Part shown: piece by piece, positions 264 to 11,724 of the stretch
How the letters are laid out: each line of letters starts with the position of its first letter
Position numbering within the stretch: position 1 is the first letter of the stretch
Source: Deferribacterales bacterium
GTDB taxonomy: Bacteria > Chrysiogenota > Deferribacteres > Deferribacterales > Geovibrionaceae
Direction: 5' to 3'
Assembly (NCBI GenBank): GCA_050253335.1
Contig: JBFWJG010000059.1
Span: 1 to 11,724, forward strand
DNA length: 11,724 nucleotides
Notes under the pieces: model-generated
Seen by the model: only the letters and a program-made list of their open reading frames with translations
What the model was told of the DNA's origin: nothing
Databases searched by the model: none
Position numbers and translations under genes: made by a program

Positions 264-686
264 GTGAAAAAGCGTGTTCTTTTCGTCTGCATCCATAACA
301 GCGCAAGAAGCCAGATGGCCGAAGCCTTTCTGAACAGCATGGCTCCTGACAGGTTCCAAGCTGAAAGCGCAGGGCTTGAGCCGGGGAAGCTGAATCCGTT
401 TGTGGTAAAGGCAATGGCGGATATTGGTATTGATATCTCCGCCAACAGCACAAACGCAGTGGCGGACTACCTCAAAGAAGGCAGGCAGTATGATTATGTT
501 ATAGCCGTCTGCGACAAAGAAGCGGCCGAAAGATGCCCTATATTCCCGGGTTCGGGCGAAAAAATGCACTGGGCGTTCAGAGATCCGTCATCCTTTGCCG
601 GAACGGATGAAGAAAAGCTCGCATTCGCCGCGGAAGTCCGTGATGAGATAAAGCAGAAACTCACAGAATGGCTCGGCGCAGTCTAG
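264..686 (+). CDS. arsC: Thioredoxin-dependent arsenate reductase (LMW-PTPase fold)
   Basis: P-loop VLFVCIHNSARSQMAE, SAG motif, resolving cysteine pair VCDKEAAERCPIFPG, and HWxFxDP. GTG start with an SD-like GGGTG about 7 nt upstream. Confidence 0.92.
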   Translation: MKKRVLFVCIHNSARSQMAEAFLNSMAPDRFQAESAGLEPGKLNPFVVKAMADIGIDISANSTNAVADYLKEGRQYDYVIAVCDKEAAERCPIFPGSGEKMHWAFRDPSSFAGTDEEKLAFAAEVRDEIKQKLTEWLGAV

Positions 687-3274
687 TCATACTCGTTCCG
701 CAGTATTTTCAGGGCTTCATCAAACTCGTAGCTGCTTACGGCCTTGTGCAGTTTCTTGAACTCAAGTTCGCTGAAAAAAGCCGAGGCCTGCTCGCGGACA
801 CTCATAAAATAGTCCACTGTTTCGCTGTCGTCATCCTCAAGCAGACTGCACATTTTTTCCATAATCCGCTCAAACTCCTCTCTGGAAACGGGCGGAACCG
901 CCTCCGTTCTGGTATGCACCGAGGATGACTTCAGCGATGCGGAAACAGACCCGACCAGATTCTCAATCTCTGAGGCAAACTCTTCAGAAGCAGCGGAAAA
1001 GTCGCCTCCGTCCGCAATTAGCCTTTCCAGTCTTCCCGCAGCAGCATAAAGCCTGTCAGCGCCTATGTTCCCCGCGGTTCCCTTCACTGAGTGAGCGGTC
1101 ATCTCCGCTGATTTGAGGTCGCCCCTCCTGATCTCCTCAAGTAGTTTTCTGCCTGTGTCCCTGTTTACTGCCGCAAATTTCTCCAGCATACGCAGATAAA
1201 GCTCGCTTTTGCCTGCGACAGTCCTGAGCCCCTTTTTAAAATCTATGCCTTCGATAGGCGGAATATCCGCTTCTTTTCTCGAGGTTCCGGCAGAAACACT
1301 GCATATACCGCCGAACTCACCCGTAAAACAGAAATTTTTCAGACATCCGTAAAGCTCCTCCGGATCAAGCGGTTTCGTTATGTGCCCGTTCATGCCCGCT
1401 TCACGGGTTTTCACCCTTTCACTCTCCAGAGCGTGCGCAGTCATGGCTATAACGGGCAGTTCAGCAAAACGGCTGTCTGAGCGGAGTATCCTCACAGCCT
1501 CATATCCGTCCATCTCAGGCATCTGGAGATCCATGAACACTATGTCGCATCTTTCGCCCGATCTTAGAAAATCCAGAGCCTCTTTTCCGTCCGCCGCCTG
1601 AAAAACGGCTGCTCCTGTATCTTCAAGCAGTTCTGCGGCTATCTGGCGGTTTATTTCATTGTCATCAGCGATAAGCACACTGACTCCCCTGAAGTTTTCG
1701 GTCTCCGGCGAGACTCCCGCCTCTATTTCATATCCTGATTTAAAAACAGCGGACGAAAGTCCGTCAATGAGGCTTGAAGCCGTGGCAGGCTTGACTATAA
1801 AGCCGTCAGCCCCGTATTCCTCTATGGTTTTCCTGTCGAGGTCACGTCCGAATGCGGTTACAAGCACTACATACGGCTTGTTTCTTATCTCAGGATCGCT
1901 TTTTATTATCTTCGAGGCCTCCAGACCGTTCATGCCGGGCATTTTCCAGTCCATCAGCACAATTATGTATGGGTCCTCAGCATCAGCCGCTTTTATCATC
2001 CTTAAAGCATCAGCGCCGCTTTCAGCTTCATCAGGCTCAAACTCAAGATTAACAAGGATTTCCGTTATTATCTGTCTGGCTGTGGCATTATCGTCCACCA
2101 CAAGCACCCGCATGTCCTTGAGGCTCTCGCTTCCGTATCTGAGATCCGTCACAGACGCTGTCCCTATCTCGAAAACTGCGCTGAAGGAGAATGTGCTCCC
2201 TTTACCGCGTTCGCTCTCAACATTAACCGAACCGCCCATGAGCTCTATCAGGCTTTTTGAAATACTCAGCCCGAGCCCTGTTCCGCCGTATTTCCTTGTG
2301 GTTGAGCCATCCGCCTGACTGAAAGCGGCAAAAAGCCTGCTCTTCTGTTCCTCAAGCAGTCCCATCCCTGTGTCACGCACGGCAAAGCGTATTTCCGCTT
2401 TACCGTCAAACTTTCTCACAACCGTCACACTGAGGGCGACCTCCCCCTCCTCCGTGAACTTAACTGCGTTGCTGACAAGATTGATCAGAACCTGCCCCAA
2501 CCGCAGCGGATCGCCGATTATAACCGCCGGAACATCCGGAGCCACATGCAGAAGAAACTCTATCCCCTTCTCCTCAGCCTTCTGAAAAACAACCGTGACT
2601 ATGTTTTCAAGCACGCTGTCCAAATGAAACTCAATTTTTTCAAGCTCGTTTTTGCCGGCTTCGACTTTGGAGAAATCAAGAATGTCGTTGACTATGGCAA
2701 GGAGCGAAACTCCCGCATTTTTAACTTTTCTGATATAGTCAGCCTGTTTGAGGGTCAACTCTGTCTTGAGTGCCAGATCGCTCAGACCAATTATGGCGTT
2801 AAGGGGGGTGCGTATTTCATGGCTCATGTTCGCCAGAAACATGGACTTTGCTTCCGTGGCGCTTTCCGCTGTCAGTCTGGCCGCTTCAAGCTCCTTCATG
2901 ACCCTTTTTTTATCTGTGATGTCCTCTTTAATCCCCACAAAATTTGTTATCTGTCCGGCTGAGTTTTTCACAGGGGAAATAACCACTGATTCCCAATAGC
3001 GCTCGCCTGACTTCTTTTTATTCAGAAATTCCCCGTGCCACTCCCTCCCTGCGAGAATGGACGACCACAGCTCCCTGTAGGTTTCATCATTTGTACTGCC
3101 GGATTTTAGTATGGAAGGCTTGCTTCCCCTTGCCTCTTCAGGGGTATATTCGGTGAGCTCCGAGAATTTCGGATTCACATATTCTATGATTCCGTCTGCG
3201 TCTGTAATCATTATGGAGGCGGGGCTCTGCTCCACTGCCTTGAGTATTATACGGTTCCGCTCCTCGGCCTCCAT
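683..3274 (-). CDS. Hybrid (unorthodox) sensor histidine kinase PAS-HisKA-HATPase_c-REC-REC-HPt, with no transmembrane segment in this ORF
   Basis: PAS/PAC at the N-terminus (AVEQSPASIMITDADGIIEYVNPKF...KEDIT). H-box FLANMSHEIRTPLNAIIG, N-box QVLINLVSNAVKFT, G boxes DTGMG and GGTGLGLSI. REC1 VLVVDDN...LMDWKMP...KP, REC2 VLIADDN...FMDLQMP...KP. HPt AHSVKGTAGNIGA. Confidence 0.95.
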   Translation of the reverse strand: MEAEERNRIILKAVEQSPASIMITDADGIIEYVNPKFSELTEYTPEEARGSKPSILKSGSTNDETYRELWSSILAGREWHGEFLNKKKSGERYWESVVISPVKNSAGQITNFVGIKEDITDKKRVMKELEAARLTAESATEAKSMFLANMSHEIRTPLNAIIGLSDLALKTELTLKQADYIRKVKNAGVSLLAIVNDILDFSKVEAGKNELEKIEFHLDSVLENIVTVVFQKAEEKGIEFLLHVAPDVPAVIIGDPLRLGQVLINLVSNAVKFTEEGEVALSVTVVRKFDGKAEIRFAVRDTGMGLLEEQKSRLFAAFSQADGSTTRKYGGTGLGLSISKSLIELMGGSVNVESERGKGSTFSFSAVFEIGTASVTDLRYGSESLKDMRVLVVDDNATARQIITEILVNLEFEPDEAESGADALRMIKAADAEDPYIIVLMDWKMPGMNGLEASKIIKSDPEIRNKPYVVLVTAFGRDLDRKTIEEYGADGFIVKPATASSLIDGLSSAVFKSGYEIEAGVSPETENFRGVSVLIADDNEINRQIAAELLEDTGAAVFQAADGKEALDFLRSGERCDIVFMDLQMPEMDGYEAVRILRSDSRFAELPVIAMTAHALESERVKTREAGMNGHITKPLDPEELYGCLKNFCFTGEFGGICSVSAGTSRKEADIPPIEGIDFKKGLRTVAGKSELYLRMLEKFAAVNRDTGRKLLEEIRRGDLKSAEMTAHSVKGTAGNIGADRLYAAAGRLERLIADGGDFSAASEEFASEIENLVGSVSASLKSSSVHTRTEAVPPVSREEFERIMEKMCSLLEDDDSETVDYFMSVREQASAFFSELEFKKLHKAVSSYEFDEALKILRNEYD

Positions 3275-3283
3275 CCTTCATTT

Positions 3284-4279
3284 TCAGCTTCCGGCGGTGA
3301 TAAAAATCATAAGCTGAACTGTGAGAACCACAGAGAAAACAGTCCAGAACACGGAGTTTCTCACAAGCGGGGGCAGAATCTCATCCATTTTAACCAGATA
3401 GGCGATCTGCCATGAGCCTTCGAGATCGTTCCAGTCGATGGGGTGAGTCTTAACAAGATATTTTTCTCCGCCCAGAGTTATATCCTCCCCGTCAAGAACA
3501 GCCCCGAGCTCCCCCGCCTGCTCCTGAAAACCAGAACCGAATCTCCGCAGGGAGGAAAGCCTTTTTTTTCTTTCGGAGTCAAGCCTTCCCGCAACTTTAT
3601 AGAGATATTCCGGCCTGTTTGAAGCAAAAACGACGCCGTGCGGAGAGACCATGAACACCGGATCTTCATATCTGCTTATGAAGTTCTCAAGGTTTTTTAT
3701 TGAGTCCTTGACCACCATTACCCCTATCACAGGCGAGCCGGACATTTTATCCGCGTAAACGGGCGTGGCGATGTAGAGACCTCTGGTTTTTGAAGATATA
3801 CCCTGCGCGGCATAAACATTCTGCACGCCCTTCATAGCCTGAATAAAATAAGGACGAAAACTGAAATTCTGCCCTGTGAGGCTTATAGGAGATACATCAG
3901 AATATGAGACAACCGTGCCGTCCCTGCTGAGGAGATAAACAGCCTCAGCGTCATTCTCCTTCAGAAGAACTTCCTGAATGTCCGCAACAACCGGATGATC
4001 CAAAGGCAGACCTCCGAGGACGATCGACTTTATGTAAGTATTGATTATTCCGAGTATGGACGCGGAACCCATGCTTTTGCTGTATATGGTTCGAGAGTGA
4101 ATATTATCTACTATCTCAGAGGCTGTAACCTGAATCTCGGAGCGTTTCTTGAAAATATATATCTTTTCCGCAGCTTTTGATGCCACATAGGATGCTGACA
4201 AAGGAAGCAGAAGAAGAAAAACCGCCGTGAAAAATATTTTCAGAAGCTTTGAAATCCTGCCGCCTTTCATATCAGTCAC
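3284..4279 (-). CDS. Membrane-anchored dCache sensor-domain protein (TM-dCache-TM, DctB-like); probably the detached N-terminal part of the downstream kinase
   Basis: N-terminal hydrophobic helix (IFFTAVFLLLLPLSASYVA). Cache motifs VYLLSRDGTVV, GQNFSFRPYFIQAMKG, RGLYIATPV, IGVMVVK and FMVSPHGVVFASNRPE. C-terminal helix VFWTVFSVVLTVQLMIFI. Start is GTG 4279 (overlapping the upstream stop) or ATG 4270. Confidence 0.85.
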   Translation of the reverse strand: MTDMKGGRISKLLKIFFTAVFLLLLPLSASYVASKAAEKIYIFKKRSEIQVTASEIVDNIHSRTIYSKSMGSASILGIINTYIKSIVLGGLPLDHPVVADIQEVLLKENDAEAVYLLSRDGTVVSYSDVSPISLTGQNFSFRPYFIQAMKGVQNVYAAQGISSKTRGLYIATPVYADKMSGSPVIGVMVVKDSIKNLENFISRYEDPVFMVSPHGVVFASNRPEYLYKVAGRLDSERKKRLSSLRRFGSGFQEQAGELGAVLDGEDITLGGEKYLVKTHPIDWNDLEGSWQIAYLVKMDEILPPLVRNSVFWTVFSVVLTVQLMIFITAGS

Positions 4280-5297
4280 CGAACTCGTCTTTTATTTTAA
4301 TCACATCGGGCATACATTTCAGAAGTGCCCCGGCGATGCGGGGATCAAAATGCTTCCCGCTTTCACTACGGATAAGCTCAACAGCTTTTTCAATGCTCCA
4401 TGCCGCCTTGTAAGGCCTGACGCTTGTGAGAGCGTCAAAAACATCCGCCACAGCGGCTATCCTGCCCACTATGGGTATTTCGTCCCCTTTCAGGCCGTCG
4501 GGGTAGCCGCTTCCGTCCCATTTTTCATGATGAGTAAGCGCAGCAGTCGCCGCTGTCTGGAGAAGCTCGGAACCGTGCCCGCCTATTATCTTGTAGCCTA
4601 TACGGGCATGTTCTTTCATCAGCCGCCACTCCTCAGCATCAAGGGGGCCGGGTTTAAGGAGGATCTGATCAGGGATGCCGATTTTTCCGACATCGTGCAT
4701 GGGCACAGCGGAAAGAATAAGCTCCGCTTCAGAATCCCTCATCCCAAGTTTCTTCGCGATGAGGTGGCAGTATCTGCTCATACGGACAATGTGCATACCT
4801 GTCTCATTGTCCTTATACTCGGCGGCAAAACCGAGACGGCGGATTATTTCATGTCTGGTTTCATGAAGCTCTTTCGTTCTTTCACGAACCATCTTTTCAA
4901 GCATTCTGCGGTGGTCATACATGCTGAGCTGGGTTCTCACCCTCGCCAGAACAATAGGAGCGCTTACTGGCTTTGTTATATAGTCAGCTCCGCCGGCGTC
5001 AAACCCCATGGATTCATCGCTGATTTCGCCTTTTGCCGTTATGAAAATCACAGGGATTGAGCGGGTGATAAGGCTGGATTTGAGTGCGCGGCAGACTTCA
5101 TAGCCGCTGATTTCAGGCATCATCACATCCAGCAGAATGATGTCCGGCAGGTCTTTTTCAGCTATTTCAAGGGCTTTTCGGCCGCTAACGGCCACCTTAA
5201 CCTTAAACTCGGGCTTGAGGATATTGCTGAGAATATCAATATTTTCAGGAACATCATCAACAACAAGAACTGTCTGCTTTTTGTCTCGATCTTCCAT
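4272..5297 (-). CDS. Response regulator with HD-GYP c-di-GMP phosphodiesterase domain (RpfG family)
   Basis: REC domain VLVVDD...LLDVMMP...FITA...YITKP. HD-GYP motifs AEYKDNETGMH, MHDVGKIGIPD, HHEKWDGSGYP and ADVFDALTSVRPYK. SD-like AGGTG 5 nt before the ATG. Confidence 0.95.
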   Translation of the reverse strand: MEDRDKKQTVLVVDDVPENIDILSNILKPEFKVKVAVSGRKALEIAEKDLPDIILLDVMMPEISGYEVCRALKSSLITRSIPVIFITAKGEISDESMGFDAGGADYITKPVSAPIVLARVRTQLSMYDHRRMLEKMVRERTKELHETRHEIIRRLGFAAEYKDNETGMHIVRMSRYCHLIAKKLGMRDSEAELILSAVPMHDVGKIGIPDQILLKPGPLDAEEWRLMKEHARIGYKIIGGHGSELLQTAATAALTHHEKWDGSGYPDGLKGDEIPIVGRIAAVADVFDALTSVRPYKAAWSIEKAVELIRSESGKHFDPRIAGALLKCMPDVIKIKDEFGD

Positions 5298-5426: not shown

Positions 5427-6140
5427 TTATTTATTTGTTCTGACTATTTCGTTAACTTCATCAACAACATATTCCATATGTTCAAGCATCGCCCTGTAGG
5501 CTTCTTCCGGATCACGGGCACAGATTCCTTCATAGATTTTCTGATGCTGAAGATACAGCCTCTCAAAACGCTCGTTATCCGTGTAGAGCCTCGAACGCAC
5601 TTCATAACTGACCTTCTCCACCCACTGGTAGATTGTGTTCATGATGTGGATCAGCAGTATGTTGTTGGTGGCGTATGATATTGTGTTGTGAAAATTTGCA
5701 TCGGGAATGTGCCCCACTTCGCCTTTGTCAAGTGCTGAGCGCATTTCATCCAGATACTCCTTCATGTTTGCGATCTCTTCATCACTCGCGCGGGCGGCGG
5801 CAGTTTTCGCTGCCCAGGTCTCAAGGATTTTGCGCACTTCCATGAGGTCGACTATAGCGTCTTCACGCTTGATGAACTCTTCCATGGCTTTATCTATGGT
5901 CTGCGAGGTGAGAGACTTGACATAGGTTCCGTCCCCATGGTTCTGAAACAGAAACCCCTGAGCCTCAAGCTTATGCAGAGCCTCCCTGAGTGAAGGACGG
6001 CTGACACCGAGCTGAGCGGCAAGTTCCCTTTCCGAAGGAAGTCTCTCCCCGGGGGCAAGCTGCGCTGTGAGTATCATTTTCTTTATCTGCTCATAGATAA
6101 TGTCGCTTATCTTTTTCTGTCTTATTTTCTCAAACTTCAT
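5427..6140 (-). CDS. GntR-family, FadR-subfamily transcriptional regulator (GlcC/LldR/PdhR-like)
   Basis: wHTH PGERLPSERELAAQLGVSRPSLREALHKLEAQG and FCD domain (EVRKILE, DANFHNTI, QHQKIYEGI, MLEHM). ATG 6140 is preferred over GTG 6146 because AAAGG lies 8 nt upstream of it. Confidence 0.93.
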   Translation of the reverse strand: MKFEKIRQKKISDIIYEQIKKMILTAQLAPGERLPSERELAAQLGVSRPSLREALHKLEAQGFLFQNHGDGTYVKSLTSQTIDKAMEEFIKREDAIVDLMEVRKILETWAAKTAAARASDEEIANMKEYLDEMRSALDKGEVGHIPDANFHNTISYATNNILLIHIMNTIYQWVEKVSYEVRSRLYTDNERFERLYLQHQKIYEGICARDPEEAYRAMLEHMEYVVDEVNEIVRTNK

Positions 6141-6223
6141 TCCCACGGCCTTTAACTGTAAGTAGTATTGAACGAGTATATATTAAAAAATTGTTTTTTC
6201 TAATATATTTTTTGCGTGGAACA

Positions 6224-7459
6224 CTATTTTATTTTCCGTAAAAAATCATAAAGTTCCGTCACAGGATGAGTGACTTCCGCATCGAGCCCTTCCCTTGCGG
6301 CCGCATCAGCAAGCTGCATTGCGCACCCGGGACAGGGGCTGTAGACTTTCACGGTTTTTTTGTCCTTCATTTCCTGAATTTTTGAACGGGAAAAGCCCTT
6401 TGAGCGTTCGTAGTATTTCAGGCTGAAAGTGCCCGCGAACCCGCAACAGCTCTGGTTTTCAAGCTTAATATATTCTGTCGCCGTGCTGTTTCGCACAAAG
6501 TTTTCCACCAGCACTTTTTTGCTGTCCTGATAGTGGCAGGGAAAATGGACTGTGCTTCTGCCTTCCGCACCGCTCTGAAGCCTCACCTTGAGAATCTCCT
6601 CAAGGAAAACCAGAATATCCACCACTTCCAGCGGGCACTCGGCGCCTGTCTGCTTAGGCCCCATTTCATACAGGCCGTACCTGCATGTGGGACAGCAGGT
6701 TATGATATACGCTGCGTCTTTATATTCCGCCAGAGCGTTATAATTCGCGCTCACGGCATTTCTGTACATCTCAAGTTCGCCCATGGAGGCGGCGGGTATC
6801 CCGCAGCAGATGTTTGTTTCGGGCACATAAACAGATACCCCGAAGTGCCTGAGCACCTCCACCACAGCGGTTCCCCACTCGGTGTAGATGAGGTTCACAG
6901 CGCATCCGGGATAAAACACAACACGCATTATCTCGCTGTCGGCCTTGTTCAGCCCTCCGTATTTTTTCACGAAGGCTTCGCTTTTAAGCTCGACAACGTT
7001 TCTTCCGCCCAGACCCGGAATCAGGGGTCTGTAAATTCCGTCCTTGACCTTTTTACTGCCGAATTTAAGCCCCATGTGCATAAGCGGGGCCATCCTCGCC
7101 ATAAGTTCCGGCTTCTCCATGGCTGTTTTGAGTATGAACTTCTGCCATTTCGGCAGTTTTTTGATTTTGCGGAGAACTTCTCTTCCGCGCAGAAAAATCT
7201 CGTCGGTCTTAACGCCGCTGGGGCAGGCTTTGAGACAGCGGGTGCAGAGAAGGCACTGGTCAAGATGTTTAAGTATCCTGCCCGCATCCTCAATGCGCCC
7301 TTCGTACACAGACTGGAGAAGGGAGATTTTCCCCCTCGCCACTGATGATTCCCTTCCGTCAGTGCGGTAAAGCGGGCAGTCTGACTGGCAGGTGCCGCAC
7401 TTCATGCACTGAAGCATCATTTCCTCAAGCTCACGGAGCTCTTTTATCAGTTCATCCAT
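6224..7459 (-). CDS. glcF: Fe-S subunit of a glycolate/D-lactate dehydrogenase (GlcF-like; 2x[4Fe-4S] plus two CCG domains)
   Basis: CMKCGTCQSDCP and CLLCTRCLKACP ferredoxin motifs. CCG domains YPGC...ICCG...CCPTC and HFPCH...SCCG...PCPGC. The ATG directly abuts the upstream stop codon (TAG-ATG). Confidence 0.88.
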   Translation of the reverse strand: MDELIKELRELEEMMLQCMKCGTCQSDCPLYRTDGRESSVARGKISLLQSVYEGRIEDAGRILKHLDQCLLCTRCLKACPSGVKTDEIFLRGREVLRKIKKLPKWQKFILKTAMEKPELMARMAPLMHMGLKFGSKKVKDGIYRPLIPGLGGRNVVELKSEAFVKKYGGLNKADSEIMRVVFYPGCAVNLIYTEWGTAVVEVLRHFGVSVYVPETNICCGIPAASMGELEMYRNAVSANYNALAEYKDAAYIITCCPTCRYGLYEMGPKQTGAECPLEVVDILVFLEEILKVRLQSGAEGRSTVHFPCHYQDSKKVLVENFVRNSTATEYIKLENQSCCGFAGTFSLKYYERSKGFSRSKIQEMKDKKTVKVYSPCPGCAMQLADAAAREGLDAEVTHPVTELYDFLRKIK

Positions 7460-8833
7460 CTACAGCCCCATTTTGTGAGGATTGAGAAGATTTTTCGGAT
7501 CAAGGCCGTTTTTCAGCTTTTTCATAAAGCGGATTGTTCCGGCTCCGACCTCGCTTTCAAGATATTTTGCTTTTGCCGAACCTATTCCGTGCTCGCCGCT
7601 GATTGTTCCTTCCAGCTTGAGGGCTGAGGCGAATATTTCGTCAATCGCTTTTTCCACCCTCAACATCTCATCCTTGTTCCTTTTATCGGTAAGGATTGTG
7701 GGGTGGAGGTTGCCGTCTCCGGCGTGACCGAAGGTTCCCACCGTAAGATCATACTTAACGGTGATGTCCTTGATGCACTGCATCATTTCCGGTATGCGGC
7801 TTCGGGGGACGGTGGCATCCTCAAGGATCAGAGTGGGCTTCAGGCGCGCAAGACTGCTGAGAGCCTTTCTGCGTGCTTCCCAAAGCTTGTCTCTCTCCTC
7901 AGGTGTTTCAGCGACATGGATTCTTCCGCCGAGTCTGTTGCAGATCTCTTTGACTTTGGCGTAATCGTCCTCAACTGCCGCGGGGTGTCCGTCCACCTCT
8001 ATGAGAAGAAGGCCGTCAGCATCGGTGGGCAGGCCGATTCTGGCGCCTTCCTCAACAGTCTTAATTGTAAATCTGTCCATAAGCTCCAGAGTCGCAGGAG
8101 TTATCTTCGCCCCGATTATTTCCGACACTGTCACGCTGGCCTTCATAAGGTCATCATAAATAACAAGCATCGAACGCGAAGCCTGCGGCTGGGGCACAAG
8201 CTTCAGGGTATGTTCGGTCATAACGCCGAGCAGGCCTTCGGATGAAACCATAAGCCCGCTGAGATTAAACCCGGTAACCATTTTAACGGTTTTTCCACCG
8301 GCAATCACTGCGTTGCCTTCCATATCAAAAAACTTTGTACCCATAACATAATCGCCGGTAACACCGTATTTGAGAGCCCTGAGCCCTCCGGCGTTTTCGG
8401 CGACGTTTCCGCCTATGGTGGACATTTTCATGCTTCCCGGATCGGGCGGATAAAGAAGCCCTTTCGCACTGACAGCCAAAGCCAGATCGGCAGTAACCAC
8501 GCCGGACTGCACAACTGCGTACATATCCTCTGTGTTTATTTCCAGAATTTTATTAAGCCCGGACATGAGAAGGACACAGCCACCCTTAATGGGAAGCGTT
8601 CCTCCGCTGAGATTTGTTCCCGCTCCTCTTGTTACAAGGGGGATATTCTCCTCACAGCACAGTTTAATTATCATGCATACCTGCTCTGCGGTTTCGGGTT
8701 TAACAACAATTTCGGGTACGCACATTTCACCGAAGGAGGCGTCATATGCGTAGCACATGAGATCCTCCTCTTCTGTCCAGACATTTTTTCCGGCGATTTC
8801 GGCAAATTTAGCTATCAGGCCTTTGGAAAGCAT
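7460..8833 (-). CDS. glcD: FAD-linked 2-hydroxy-acid dehydrogenase subunit (GlcD/D-lactate dehydrogenase family)
   Basis: RGAGTNLSGG, YPPDPGS, STIGGNVAENAGG, LKYGVT and SEGLLG motifs, plus metal/substrate-site motifs HAGDGNLH and GEHGIG. Start moved to ATG 8833 (MLSKG...) because of the upstream GAGGA and because it removes the overlap with dctM. Confidence 0.92.
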   Translation of the reverse strand: MLSKGLIAKFAEIAGKNVWTEEEDLMCYAYDASFGEMCVPEIVVKPETAEQVCMIIKLCCEENIPLVTRGAGTNLSGGTLPIKGGCVLLMSGLNKILEINTEDMYAVVQSGVVTADLALAVSAKGLLYPPDPGSMKMSTIGGNVAENAGGLRALKYGVTGDYVMGTKFFDMEGNAVIAGGKTVKMVTGFNLSGLMVSSEGLLGVMTEHTLKLVPQPQASRSMLVIYDDLMKASVTVSEIIGAKITPATLELMDRFTIKTVEEGARIGLPTDADGLLLIEVDGHPAAVEDDYAKVKEICNRLGGRIHVAETPEERDKLWEARRKALSSLARLKPTLILEDATVPRSRIPEMMQCIKDITVKYDLTVGTFGHAGDGNLHPTILTDKRNKDEMLRVEKAIDEIFASALKLEGTISGEHGIGSAKAKYLESEVGAGTIRFMKKLKNGLDPKNLLNPHKMGL

Positions 8834-8846
8834 TTTGTCCTCGCTC

Positions 8847-10172
8847 TTATTTAAACACTGCGTTAGGCAGCCATGTGATGATTTCGGGGAAAACAACGCA
8901 CAGTATCAGCGCTATAAGCTGAAGCAGCACGAAAGGCAGAATCCCTTTGTATATATGGCTGAGTTCCATCCCTTCCGGTGCGACGCCTTTGAGATAGAAA
9001 AGCGCATAGCCGAAGGGGGGTGTAAGGAAAGACATCTGAAGGTTCACGCAGACAAGTATCGCAAACCACAGCGGATCGAAACCGAGCTGGTTTACTGCGA
9101 TAGGCGTGAATATCGGCACGCAGAGAAGAAGAATTCCCAGCCAGTCCACAAACATTCCCAGAAGGAAGATGATGAACATCATAACGCCGAGTATCACATA
9201 TCTGTTGTCGCTGACTGAGAAGAGAATGTCAGTGAAAACTTCTCCTCCGCCGAGACCCATGAATATGGATGTATAAAAGTTTGCGCCGACAAAGATAAGC
9301 ATAACCATACATGTTATCTTCATGGTGGAATAAGCCGCGTCTTTAAAAAGCTTCACATTTACCCTGCGGTTGGCGAAGGCAAGAAGAAGCGCACCCACAC
9401 AGCCCAGACCTGCCGCCTCAGTGGGCGTTGCGATACCTGCGGAAATACTTCCGAGAACCGCAAGAATCAGGAACAGTGGCGGGAAGAGAGATTTGCACAT
9501 CATAACAAATTTCTGACCCGCTGTGTGGATTCTCTCCGCTTTAGGGATTGGAGGACCTGCGTTGGGCTTAACCTGGCAGTAGATAAAAGCATAAACAAGG
9601 TATGTGAATGCCAGAAGAAGACCGGGAACAACTGCGGCCATGAAAAGCTTGCCGACGCTCATCCCTATGAGACCGCCGTACACAACAAGCATGATCGACG
9701 GAGGAATAAGTATCCCCAGCGTTCCGCCCGCGGTGATAACCCCCGCTGTGAGCGAGAGGTCATAGCCTTTTTTAACCATTGAGGGAGCCGCAAGAAGACC
9801 CATAGCAACAACAGAAGCGCCGACGATTCCAGTTGTAGCGGCAAACACGGTGCACACGACTATTGTCGCAAGCGCAAGCCCGCCTTTGATAGAACCCATG
9901 ACAACATACATCGTCTCATACAGATCATCCGCCACACCGGACTTGTCCAGAAACTGCGCCATCAGTATGAAAAGCGGTATTGCCACGAGAACATAATTTG
10001 TCATCAGGCCGTAGCTTTTGTTGGCAAGGATAAAAAACGCCGTGGGGCCGTAGCCCAGAATTCCGAAAATAATACCAAGCCCGCCGAGGGTTATTCCAAG
10101 GGGGTGTCCGAGGAAAACAACCACAAGCAGGATGACAAACATCGCTACCGATAAAAATTCAGGAGACATCAT
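8847..10172 (-). CDS. dctM: TRAP transporter large permease subunit
   Basis: Polytopic hydrophobic protein with AIPLFILM, GGTLGILIPPSI, ATPTEAA, GFDPLWF and SFLTPPFGYALFYL. The start overlaps the dctQ stop (ATGA). Confidence 0.95.
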   Translation of the reverse strand: MMSPEFLSVAMFVILLVVVFLGHPLGITLGGLGIIFGILGYGPTAFFILANKSYGLMTNYVLVAIPLFILMAQFLDKSGVADDLYETMYVVMGSIKGGLALATIVVCTVFAATTGIVGASVVAMGLLAAPSMVKKGYDLSLTAGVITAGGTLGILIPPSIMLVVYGGLIGMSVGKLFMAAVVPGLLLAFTYLVYAFIYCQVKPNAGPPIPKAERIHTAGQKFVMMCKSLFPPLFLILAVLGSISAGIATPTEAAGLGCVGALLLAFANRRVNVKLFKDAAYSTMKITCMVMLIFVGANFYTSIFMGLGGGEVFTDILFSVSDNRYVILGVMMFIIFLLGMFVDWLGILLLCVPIFTPIAVNQLGFDPLWFAILVCVNLQMSFLTPPFGYALFYLKGVAPEGMELSHIYKGILPFVLLQLIALILCVVFPEIITWLPNAVFK

Positions 10173-10669
10173 GCTCTCACACCTCTGATCTGCTGAACAG
10201 CTTTAAGGAATTCTGCTATCCCCTGAATAAGAAGAAAAACAAAGCCCACTGCCAGGAATGTTTTGAAATGATAAACAGGTGCGCCCCAGGGGGACTGCAC
10301 ACGCTCAAGCCCCTGCCAGGACTGAAGAGCAAAAACATAAGAGGCCTTAATAGCTATTATCATAAAAGGGAAGAAGAGCACGAGGTAGCTCACCGCAGCT
10401 ATCCACCCTTGAACCTTCGGGTTAAGTTTTGCTGTTATAATATCAATACCTACATGCATCTTGTGCTTCAGCGTGTAGCCGAAGCCCATGAGGAACATAA
10501 CTCCGTAAAGCATGTTGCTCAAATCGAATGCCCAGACTGTGGGCTTGCCGAAAACTTTTCTGCTGATTACTTCATAGACAACTACGATAAGCAGCAGATA
10601 AACGGAAAAAGAAAAAACCTTTCCCACCCACTCTGTTACTGATTCTATCAGTTTGATTAACTTTTCCAT
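10169..10669 (-). CDS. dctQ: TRAP transporter small permease subunit
   Basis: Four hydrophobic segments with YEVISRKVFGKPTVWA and YTLKHKMHVGIDI. Lies between dctP and dctM. ATG 10669 is preceded by GGAG at 5 nt. Confidence 0.93.
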   Translation of the reverse strand: MEKLIKLIESVTEWVGKVFSFSVYLLLIVVVYEVISRKVFGKPTVWAFDLSNMLYGVMFLMGFGYTLKHKMHVGIDIITAKLNPKVQGWIAAVSYLVLFFPFMIIAIKASYVFALQSWQGLERVQSPWGAPVYHFKTFLAVGFVFLLIQGIAEFLKAVQQIRGVRA

Positions 10670-10755
10670 AAATGCTCCGAAAAATGACTGCAATGATACT
10701 GTGCGGATCCTGATCCGCTCTGTTTCATATCCGTAAAACGCTTACAGTCCGACCG

Positions 10756-10795
10756 AAAATAAAGAAGCACAGGGCAGGAGAACCCTGCCCCGCGC
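10756..10795 (-). terminator. Intrinsic terminator-like / stabilising hairpin between dctP and dctQ
   Basis: On the - strand: GCGCGGGGCAGG-GTTCT-CCTGCCCTGTGC, a 12-bp stem with two G-U pairs, followed by TTCTTTATTTT. It begins 16 nt after the dctP stop. Confidence 0.8.
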
Positions 10796-10811
10796 CTTTC
10801 AGTTTAGTATT

Positions 10812-11723
10812 TTATTCGTAATGTTTGCCCGCAAGATATTCATCTTTCGGGAAAGCCGCAACTCCGCCTCTGAGGTCTTTCCATACAGAGTATTCAGCTA
10901 TGAAGCTGTTCTGAGAAGCGAGTATTTTATCAAGCAGGGGGTTGCCTGCTCTGAGTTTTGTAAGATAAGCATCAGTTGTTTTTCTGAGCTCGTTAAGCGA
11001 TGCAGCGTCAAGCTTGTTGAACTTCACGCCTTCTGCCTGATATTTCAGGATAGCTTCGGCATTTTTCTTTTCGCTTCTTGCTATGTCCCACATCTGTGTT
11101 TCATAGGAAGCTATAAGAAGAGCCTGCTGAAGGTAAGGGGGAAGCTCATCATACGCTTTTTTGTTTACAGTGAACATGTTCTGCACGCCTGTCTGGTGCC
11201 AGCCGGGAAGCATTACGTTTTTGGCGATTTCCTGGAAGCCCATGGGGTACGTGATGAAAGGAGTCGAGAACTCTGCTGAGTCAAGAACGCCTCTTTCAAA
11301 AGCGAGGTAGATTTCGCCGCCGGGGAGCGGAGTAACGGAAACACCCATTTCTTTAAGAATGTCTGCCGCCCAGCCCACAGTTCTGATTTTCATGCCGGAA
11401 AGCTGTTTAACATCAGTAACGGGGTTTTTGGTGAAGAAGCCCATCTCCTGACCGGAGTTACCGCCCATGAGGGGTTTAAGTCCGAAGTTGCCGTACAGCT
11501 CATCAGCAAGGCCGATACCGCCGCCTTCCATAAGCCATATGGAGTATTCGATGTTATTAAGACCGAAAGGAACGGAAGCGAAAGCAACGAAGCCTTCTTC
11601 TTTGCCTTTCCAGTAGCCGGGCCAGTCGTGACCCATTTCCACAACGCCGTTTCTCACAGCGTCAAACACCTCGAAAGCGGGCACAAGCGCGCCGTCGGGG
11701 AAAACTTTGATTTTGAGCTGGCC
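10812..11723 (-). CDS. dctP: TRAP substrate-binding protein of the TakP / 2-keto- and 2-hydroxy-acid-binding group, 5'-truncated
   Basis: The frame stays open to the window edge (GQLKIKVFPDGALVPAFEVFDAV). Motifs YWKGK, VPFGL, GNSGQEMG, GMKIR (conserved carboxylate-binding Arg), LPGGEIYLAFERGVLDSAEF and PGWHQ. Confidence 0.93.
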   Translation of the reverse strand, partial: GQLKIKVFPDGALVPAFEVFDAVRNGVVEMGHDWPGYWKGKEEGFVAFASVPFGLNNIEYSIWLMEGGGIGLADELYGNFGLKPLMGGNSGQEMGFFTKNPVTDVKQLSGMKIRTVGWAADILKEMGVSVTPLPGGEIYLAFERGVLDSAEFSTPFITYPMGFQEIAKNVMLPGWHQTGVQNMFTVNKKAYDELPPYLQQALLIASYETQMWDIARSEKKNAEAILKYQAEGVKFNKLDAASLNELRKTTDAYLTKLRAGNPLLDKILASQNSFIAEYSVWKDLRGGVAAFPKDEYLAGKHYE

Positions 11724-11724
11724 G

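Follow-up and report, generated by a model that had tools for sequence, protein, structure and literature searches.

The window analysed here, 11,724 nt long, is an entire contig of a fragmented Geovibrio genome (2.58 Mb in 142 contigs, N50 34 kb, four N-gaps, 99.9% complete by markers; the genus is taken from the source names of neighbouring proteins). On its minus strand the gene of a membrane-bound hybrid histidine kinase (HK) is interrupted by two TGA codons, and the question is whether the organism carries a split receptor, a freshly broken gene or an intact gene that was misread. At the junction the minus strand reads GGA AGC TGA AAA TGA AGG ATG (Table 1). Both open reading frames (ORFs) share one frame and 9 nt lie between the first stop and the ATG of the kinase, as the first-pass annotation had described; for the assembled sequence the split is thus confirmed. 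In our estimate there is an even chance that the two TGAs stem from a local error in the consensus of a metagenome assembled at low coverage, the organism itself possessing an intact kinase of about 1195 aa.

The sensor ORF, for which a GTG at 4279 is an alternative start, contains a dCache_1 domain scoring above the Pfam cut-off (E 2.9e-14, 53.6 bits) and flanked by two transmembrane (TM) helices according to hydropathy. It terminates at residue 328, three residues past TM2, and none of these residues is Lys or Arg. In the kinase ORF the HisKA histidine, the N, G1 and G2 boxes, the Asp of the receiver (REC) domains and the His of the histidine phosphotransfer (HPt) domain are all intact and conserved with the congeners. 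The sensor ending just after TM2 without basic residues, the key motifs kept in both halves and the joined architecture TM-dCache-TM-PAS-HK-REC-REC-HPt had all been proposed from the sequence and are borne out by the Pfam domains of both halves and by the same order in the fused congener proteins.

Related genomes carry one continuous gene, which answers the question of the first-pass annotation whether orthologues are fused. Matches were found in four of 40 relatives searched, namely in three congeners and in one distant genome (27% identity, also a long frame). The congener open frames at this gene have 1197, 1197 and 1208 aa, and in all three genomes the kinase is a single protein of 1192–1197 aa with the domain order given above; the sensor half is 65–74% identical to the N-terminal third of these proteins. 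The protein clusters of the relatives comprise 24 proteins, 21 of which span the junction and are without exception fused, the remaining three being fragments without the junction. These 21 Geovibrio proteins come from three species-level clusters, belong to species other than that of the window and are not independent. Among the fused orthologues are P0021 (Geovibrio thiophilus, named response regulator / RpfC), P0214 (G. ferrireducens) and P0223 (Geovibrio sp. ADMFC3), and P0020–P0022 have the same domain order and 67–77% identity with the window gene over the whole length.

The alignment of the junction requires no gap, the congeners reading GNRKMRM, GNRKKRM and GNRRQRL against GS*K*RM in the window (asterisks are stops), so that the fused orthologues show GNR[KR]xR where the window has GS*K*R. 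Because the orthologues align without a gap, the lesions are substitutions in the helix leading from TM2 to the PAS domain. The earlier alternative of a compensating indel pair is thereby ruled out; the frame YHRRKLKMK on which it was built does exist in the sequence, but it is not the homologous one. As to the proposal that both TGAs arose by substitution from Arg codons, the orthologues and a 95%-identical strain, all gap-free, speak for substitutions, while an Arg origin of the second TGA stays at the level of plausible: this codon is variable in the relatives, encoding Met, Lys or Gln, and Arg in one protein (P0227).

We then asked how exceptional the lesion is within its genome. For a nonsense census 1222 ORFs from 1.6 of the 3.0 Mb of one congener (G003) were compared with the genome of the window; 838 passed the filters, and of these 805 orthologues (300,424 codons) had the properties of genuine genes. 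In 26 of the 805 the alignment contained a stop: in 23 cases at the N terminus, which we judged by eye to be over-extended starts, in two cases within the last ten codons, and in the kinase gene, the sole instance of mid-gene nonsense. The genome is therefore neither decaying nor error-rich, ruling out general genome decay or a generally faulty assembly. Eight frameshift candidates were found in the genome, two of them at 100-N gaps. Had two stops struck a dead gene independently, they would lie no more than two codons apart in about 0.3% of cases, and some 400 further single-base changes that would create a stop in the gene have not occurred. The two stops thus point to one clustered event, technical or mutational, or else to an older split with the 9-nt spacer alone free to change.

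Evidence at the read level consists of the assembled contigs of runs X1–X4, four of the 21 sequencing runs that share words with the window; the small shares of the other 17 do not count as evidence. Run X1 contains 91% of the sampled words, and across its listed matching records the contigs differ from the window at a single base. They do not cover a 31-nt stretch (Table 1) whose edge falls on the first letter of the second stop and which contains the first stop. The word depth in X1 is 3.9 to the left of this gap and 8.8 to the right, and the two X1 records flanking it reproduce by themselves the bin depths of 2.43 and 8.03 exactly, which leaves no contig between them. Since Logan discards k-mers seen once (10.1101/2024.07.30.605881), the patch is thin, branched or filtered in X1. 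The contigs of X2 and X3 do not reach the junction, and the RNA run X2 has no coverage of 3081–3382. A contig of X4, the 95%-identical strain, crosses the junction gap-free (record 31, 3072–3691); its unlisted changes (among 41 of 81) count four A>T on the plus strand against no T>A (p 0.05), a weak hint that X4 has sense codons at the stops. The 40 listed of the 81 differences to near-conspecific strains are 35 synonymous and 5 non-synonymous ones. We also considered that the gap had been filled from elsewhere in the genome and rejected this, the best other match of the 31 nt being 18/19 bases (E 0.04). At 2855–2972 a second allele is present in X1, with three differences matching those of X3; at least two strains of the lineage thus co-occur in X1.

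The reading as a consensus error follows from the fused orthologues, the gap-free alignment, the lone lesion and the lack of contig support for 3280–3310. A short, thinly covered, hairpin-flanked and possibly two-allele patch would have been bridged by few reads, and an A-to-T miscall at the first base of AGA or AAA in this Lys/Arg-rich stretch would produce a stop. Thin coverage is known to create spurious internal stops (PMC11017572), and inverted repeats and GGC are reported to trigger Illumina errors and coverage dips (PMC3141275).

Several observations weigh against such an error. Nonsense errors are otherwise absent from the assembly, X1 may be the very sample from which the assembly was made and hence not independent, and the hole in the contigs alone proves nothing. 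At a second X1 hole (2626–2639) X2 and X3 list no departure from the window, which shows that correct sequence can go uncovered too. Furthermore, neither T equals the preceding base in either read direction, and the dephasing or lagging-base pattern (Nakamura et al., PMC3141275) therefore does not fit. Finally, the first TGA completes a perfect inverted repeat, as did 202 of 20000 simulated AGA-to-TGA changes (1%). Next to the second hole, at 2648–2650 (residue 541 of the joined protein), the window encodes Asn (AAC), in contrast to Ile in X2, X3 and all three congeners, and the X1 contig near 2626–2639 shows one difference, possibly this base; Asn541 may be another A/T error of the local consensus or a private missense mutation.

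The inverted repeat, which we noticed after the fact, speaks for a local event driven by the sequence itself, be it in the cell or in the data. The second TGA lies outside the arms. Another perfect 8-bp inverted repeat (3320–3327 and 3358–3365) adjoins the first one; these two are the only perfect 8-bp repeats of the 3.6-kb gene, and both are located at TM2. The lineage-private TM2 changes I317T, G320L and N328S fall into repeat arms. A hairpin at the junction is no more stable than those of shuffled sequences. Inversion of the repeat spacer was tried as an explanation and discarded, the forward spacer matching the orthologues by inspection.

Less probable than the consensus error, and yet a serious possibility, is that the stops are real, very young and private to the strain or to part of its population, having arisen in one clustered mutational event. 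Template switching homogenises repeat arms in vivo and yields multi-base changes (PMC8604942), and the first stop would possibly stem from a switch between the 8-bp arms; the repeat-perfecting TGA fits such a switch at least as well as an error. For the second TGA, however, the repeat offers no template in register, a point against this account. A stop/non-stop polymorphism would also break the contigs at 3280, whereas a fixed real allele does not itself predict the hole, and the split has never been seen in a second assembly. The sensor would then be a dead membrane stub and the kinase either lost or made at a low level by re-initiation at the Met 9 nt downstream, a distance within the range of –8 to +10 nt that is treated as predictive of translational coupling (PMC10666635). 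A re-initiated kinase would be soluble, blind to the periplasmic signal and still feeding the HD-GYP regulator encoded next to it. In line with a young event neither half shows decay: the pairwise ratios of non-synonymous to synonymous divergence (dN/dS), with dS near saturation, are 0.09–0.12 for the sensor and 0.06–0.08 for the kinase in pairs with the window, close to 0.08–0.10 and 0.055 in pairs without it (three kinase pairs undefined). Of the options named by the first-pass annotation, sequencing error and recent fission thus remain the live ones.

We consider it unlikely that the split is a lineage-specific fission kept by selection, in which one operon encodes a membrane dCache protein and a soluble PAS-hybrid kinase by translational coupling. 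The halves would re-associate through the cut helix or act apart, with the kinase now responding through its PAS domain. Within the 9-nt spacer the second TGA would be neutral or serve as a back-up, and TM2 would have been re-tuned after the cut. Such a history would account for two stops in the spacer and none elsewhere, the break separates the domains cleanly and has an existing Met 9 nt away, and the dN/dS values point to purifying selection on both halves. Residues 315–334 are moreover the most lineage-private 20-codon segment (5 of 7 otherwise invariant columns, one being a stop; nominal p 1e-4 for the best of a scan over about 60 independent segments), the score of TM1 being also raised (4 of 8 columns).

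The relatives argue against a maintained fission. The split is seen in none of the three congeners and in none of the 21 junction-spanning proteins; both split proteins form single-member clusters and are recorded on one contig, and no stand-alone close homologue was found in the near or shorter protein searches. Searches for a conspecific allele (longer, near and shorter proteins, metagenomes, genomes, genus) returned other species only. A wider search gave 2751 more distant homologues of the sensor. Of the best 150, no protein stops within 20 residues of TM2, three have tails of 21–60 residues, 144 have longer ones, and three short homologues have no detectable TM2; at least one Lys or Arg is present within 12 residues after TM2 in 146 of the 147 with a detectable TM2. 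The sensor half of the window has neither a cytoplasmic tail nor a basic anchor for a partner. In the AlphaFold model of a fused relative a single helix (301–347) runs across the break (predicted local distance difference test, pLDDT, 54–80 over 321–350; predicted template modelling score, pTM, 0.41). The cut thus falls within the element expected to carry the signal (PMC8534201). The stops are also without support in the X1 contigs, and the four unlisted A>T changes of X4 would remove stops of this kind (weak, p 0.05). The earlier suggestion of a functional two-protein receptor therefore gains no support from the congeners, the 21 proteins or the sensor homologues.

The Shine–Dalgarno (SD) energy at the kinase ATG (3274) is –3.5 kcal/mol against a genome median of –5.7, all energies being computed with an anti-SD 9-mer, and an SD of this strength or below precedes 30% of 1003 first-ATG starts. 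It had been noted that this start lacks a well-spaced SD; the SD is weak indeed, but the starts of the sensor and of the rpfG-type gene in this operon are comparably weak, which fits a functional start too. No SD has been gained, since a fused congener scores the same –3.5 at the equivalent ATG; two of the three congeners already have this Met codon inside their fused gene. Upstream of the kinase ORF no promoter-like site above chance was found.

Programmed recoding of the stops into a full-length protein (selenocysteine (Sec) insertion, TGA reassignment or readthrough), also suggested earlier, is highly improbable and was rejected: an A follows each of the two TGAs and the reading frame continues across them, but two successive readthroughs would be needed, the stops are not conserved, the orthologues have Arg and Met/Lys/Gln rather than Cys or Trp at these positions, TGA is a common stop in this genome (498 of 1244 ORFs of at least 300 aa), the sequence 3′ of the stops folds no better than shuffles (z +0.8), and neither SelA nor a tRNA-Sec over the cut-off nor a tRNA with a TCA anticodon was found in the genome, whose tRNA set is incomplete so that absence of tRNA-Sec is not proven. 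ARAGORN called no tRNA for Lys, Asn, Glu or Ile and one Leu(aag) in this genome; the absent loci are probably unassembled.

Table 1. Features of the kinase locus in the window
Feature	Position	Strand	Basis and remarks
Kinase half, PAS-HisKA-HATPase_c-REC-REC-HPt, 863 aa	683..3274	-	Pfam domains, motifs intact
Second TGA, codon 331	3278..3280	-	ATG, AAA or CAG in congeners
31-nt stretch without X1 contig	3280..3310		Includes first base of both TGAs; flanking X1 contigs stop at 3279 and resume at 3311
Perfect 8-bp inverted repeat, arms 3283-3290 and 3311-3318, 20-nt spacer	3283..3318		First TGA in one arm
First TGA, codon 329	3284..3286	-	AGA (Arg) in all three congeners
Sensor half, TM1 (12-30) - dCache_1 - TM2 (307-325), 328 aa from ATG 4270	3284..4270	-	Pfam and hydropathy
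REC + HD-GYP response regulator, RpfG-like architecture	4272..5297	-	Pfam Response_reg + HD_5; first gene of the operon

The gene order around the kinase is the same in the congeners G001–G003. In all three the REC-HD-GYP gene lies directly upstream of the kinase (79–87% identity), and its product is likely the output of the kinase phosphorelay. Further upstream on the same strand, at 5427–11724 and in all congeners, follow genes for a FadR/GntR regulator, glycolate/lactate oxidase-type proteins (GlcF, GlcD) and a TRAP transporter (DctPQM); from these neighbours one might guess at a carboxylate as ligand of the dCache sensor. Compared with G002, dS is 1.8–2.4 for the regulator–kinase module (683–5297) and 0.4–0.75 for the glcD/glcF/dctM-type genes (6224–10172), and the closest-relative pattern switches between the two regions, possibly reflecting a mosaic history or a weaker codon bias. 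Elsewhere in the genome contigs C97 (3336) and C108 (3371) contain 100-N scaffold gaps flanked by duplicated gene segments, as is typical of low-coverage scaffolding.

The best NCBIfam matches of the kinase are BarA, TorS, ArcB and LuxQ, with which it shares the HisKA-HATPase-REC(-HPt) core and from which it differs by its dCache input, its PAS domain and its two REC domains; all matches are below the curated cut-offs (BarA 486–506 bits vs 890), and no named family passed among the matches listed. Xanthomonas RpfC/RpfG is the same pairing of a hybrid kinase with a REC-HD-GYP regulator. The TM-dCache-TM input of the window protein is unlike the sensor of RpfC, which spans the membrane several times. 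No rpfF-type (crotonase-fold) gene was found in the window or in the 16-kb congener loci; four ECH_1 matches lie elsewhere in the genome. Judged by its domains, the phosphorelay would work in a BarA/RpfC-like manner and feed the HD-GYP regulator. Fusions and fissions of two-component systems were reportedly treated by Cock and Whitworth in 2007. Our literature search, which left most subscription journals outside, found no paper on Geovibrio histidine kinases or on fission of this system. Sensing and kinase functions reside on different polypeptides in LuxP/LuxQ, in the Bce-type transporter–kinase pairs and in WalH/WalI (PMC8534201), but those kinases keep a membrane segment of their own, whereas the kinase half described here would have none and its split is not conserved. 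Another parallel is the spurious or young internal-stop pseudogene of draft genomes, where an internal stop likewise occurs in one low-coverage assembly with intact relatives (PMC11017572); here there are two stops two codons apart, one of them in an inverted-repeat arm.

If the gene is intact in the organism, as the consensus error implies, its periplasmic dCache domain would bind a small ligand, and TM2 with the continuing helix would pass the movement through the PAS domain to the HisKA/HATPase core. Phosphate would then travel from His to REC to HPt and on to the co-encoded REC-HD-GYP protein, which would change the turnover of cyclic di-GMP. An error or a young nonsense allele would be of little significance, beyond the point that in-frame splits in low-coverage metagenome genomes need read-level support. 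Should a Geovibrio lineage have made this cut and kept both halves, a sensor–kinase fission would have been caught soon after the event, with fused sister species as controls. A split that is both real and common to the lineage would amount to a natural experiment: it would show whether a periplasmic sensor can signal to a kinase in the absence of a continuous TM2 helix, and how soluble kinases arise from membrane receptors.

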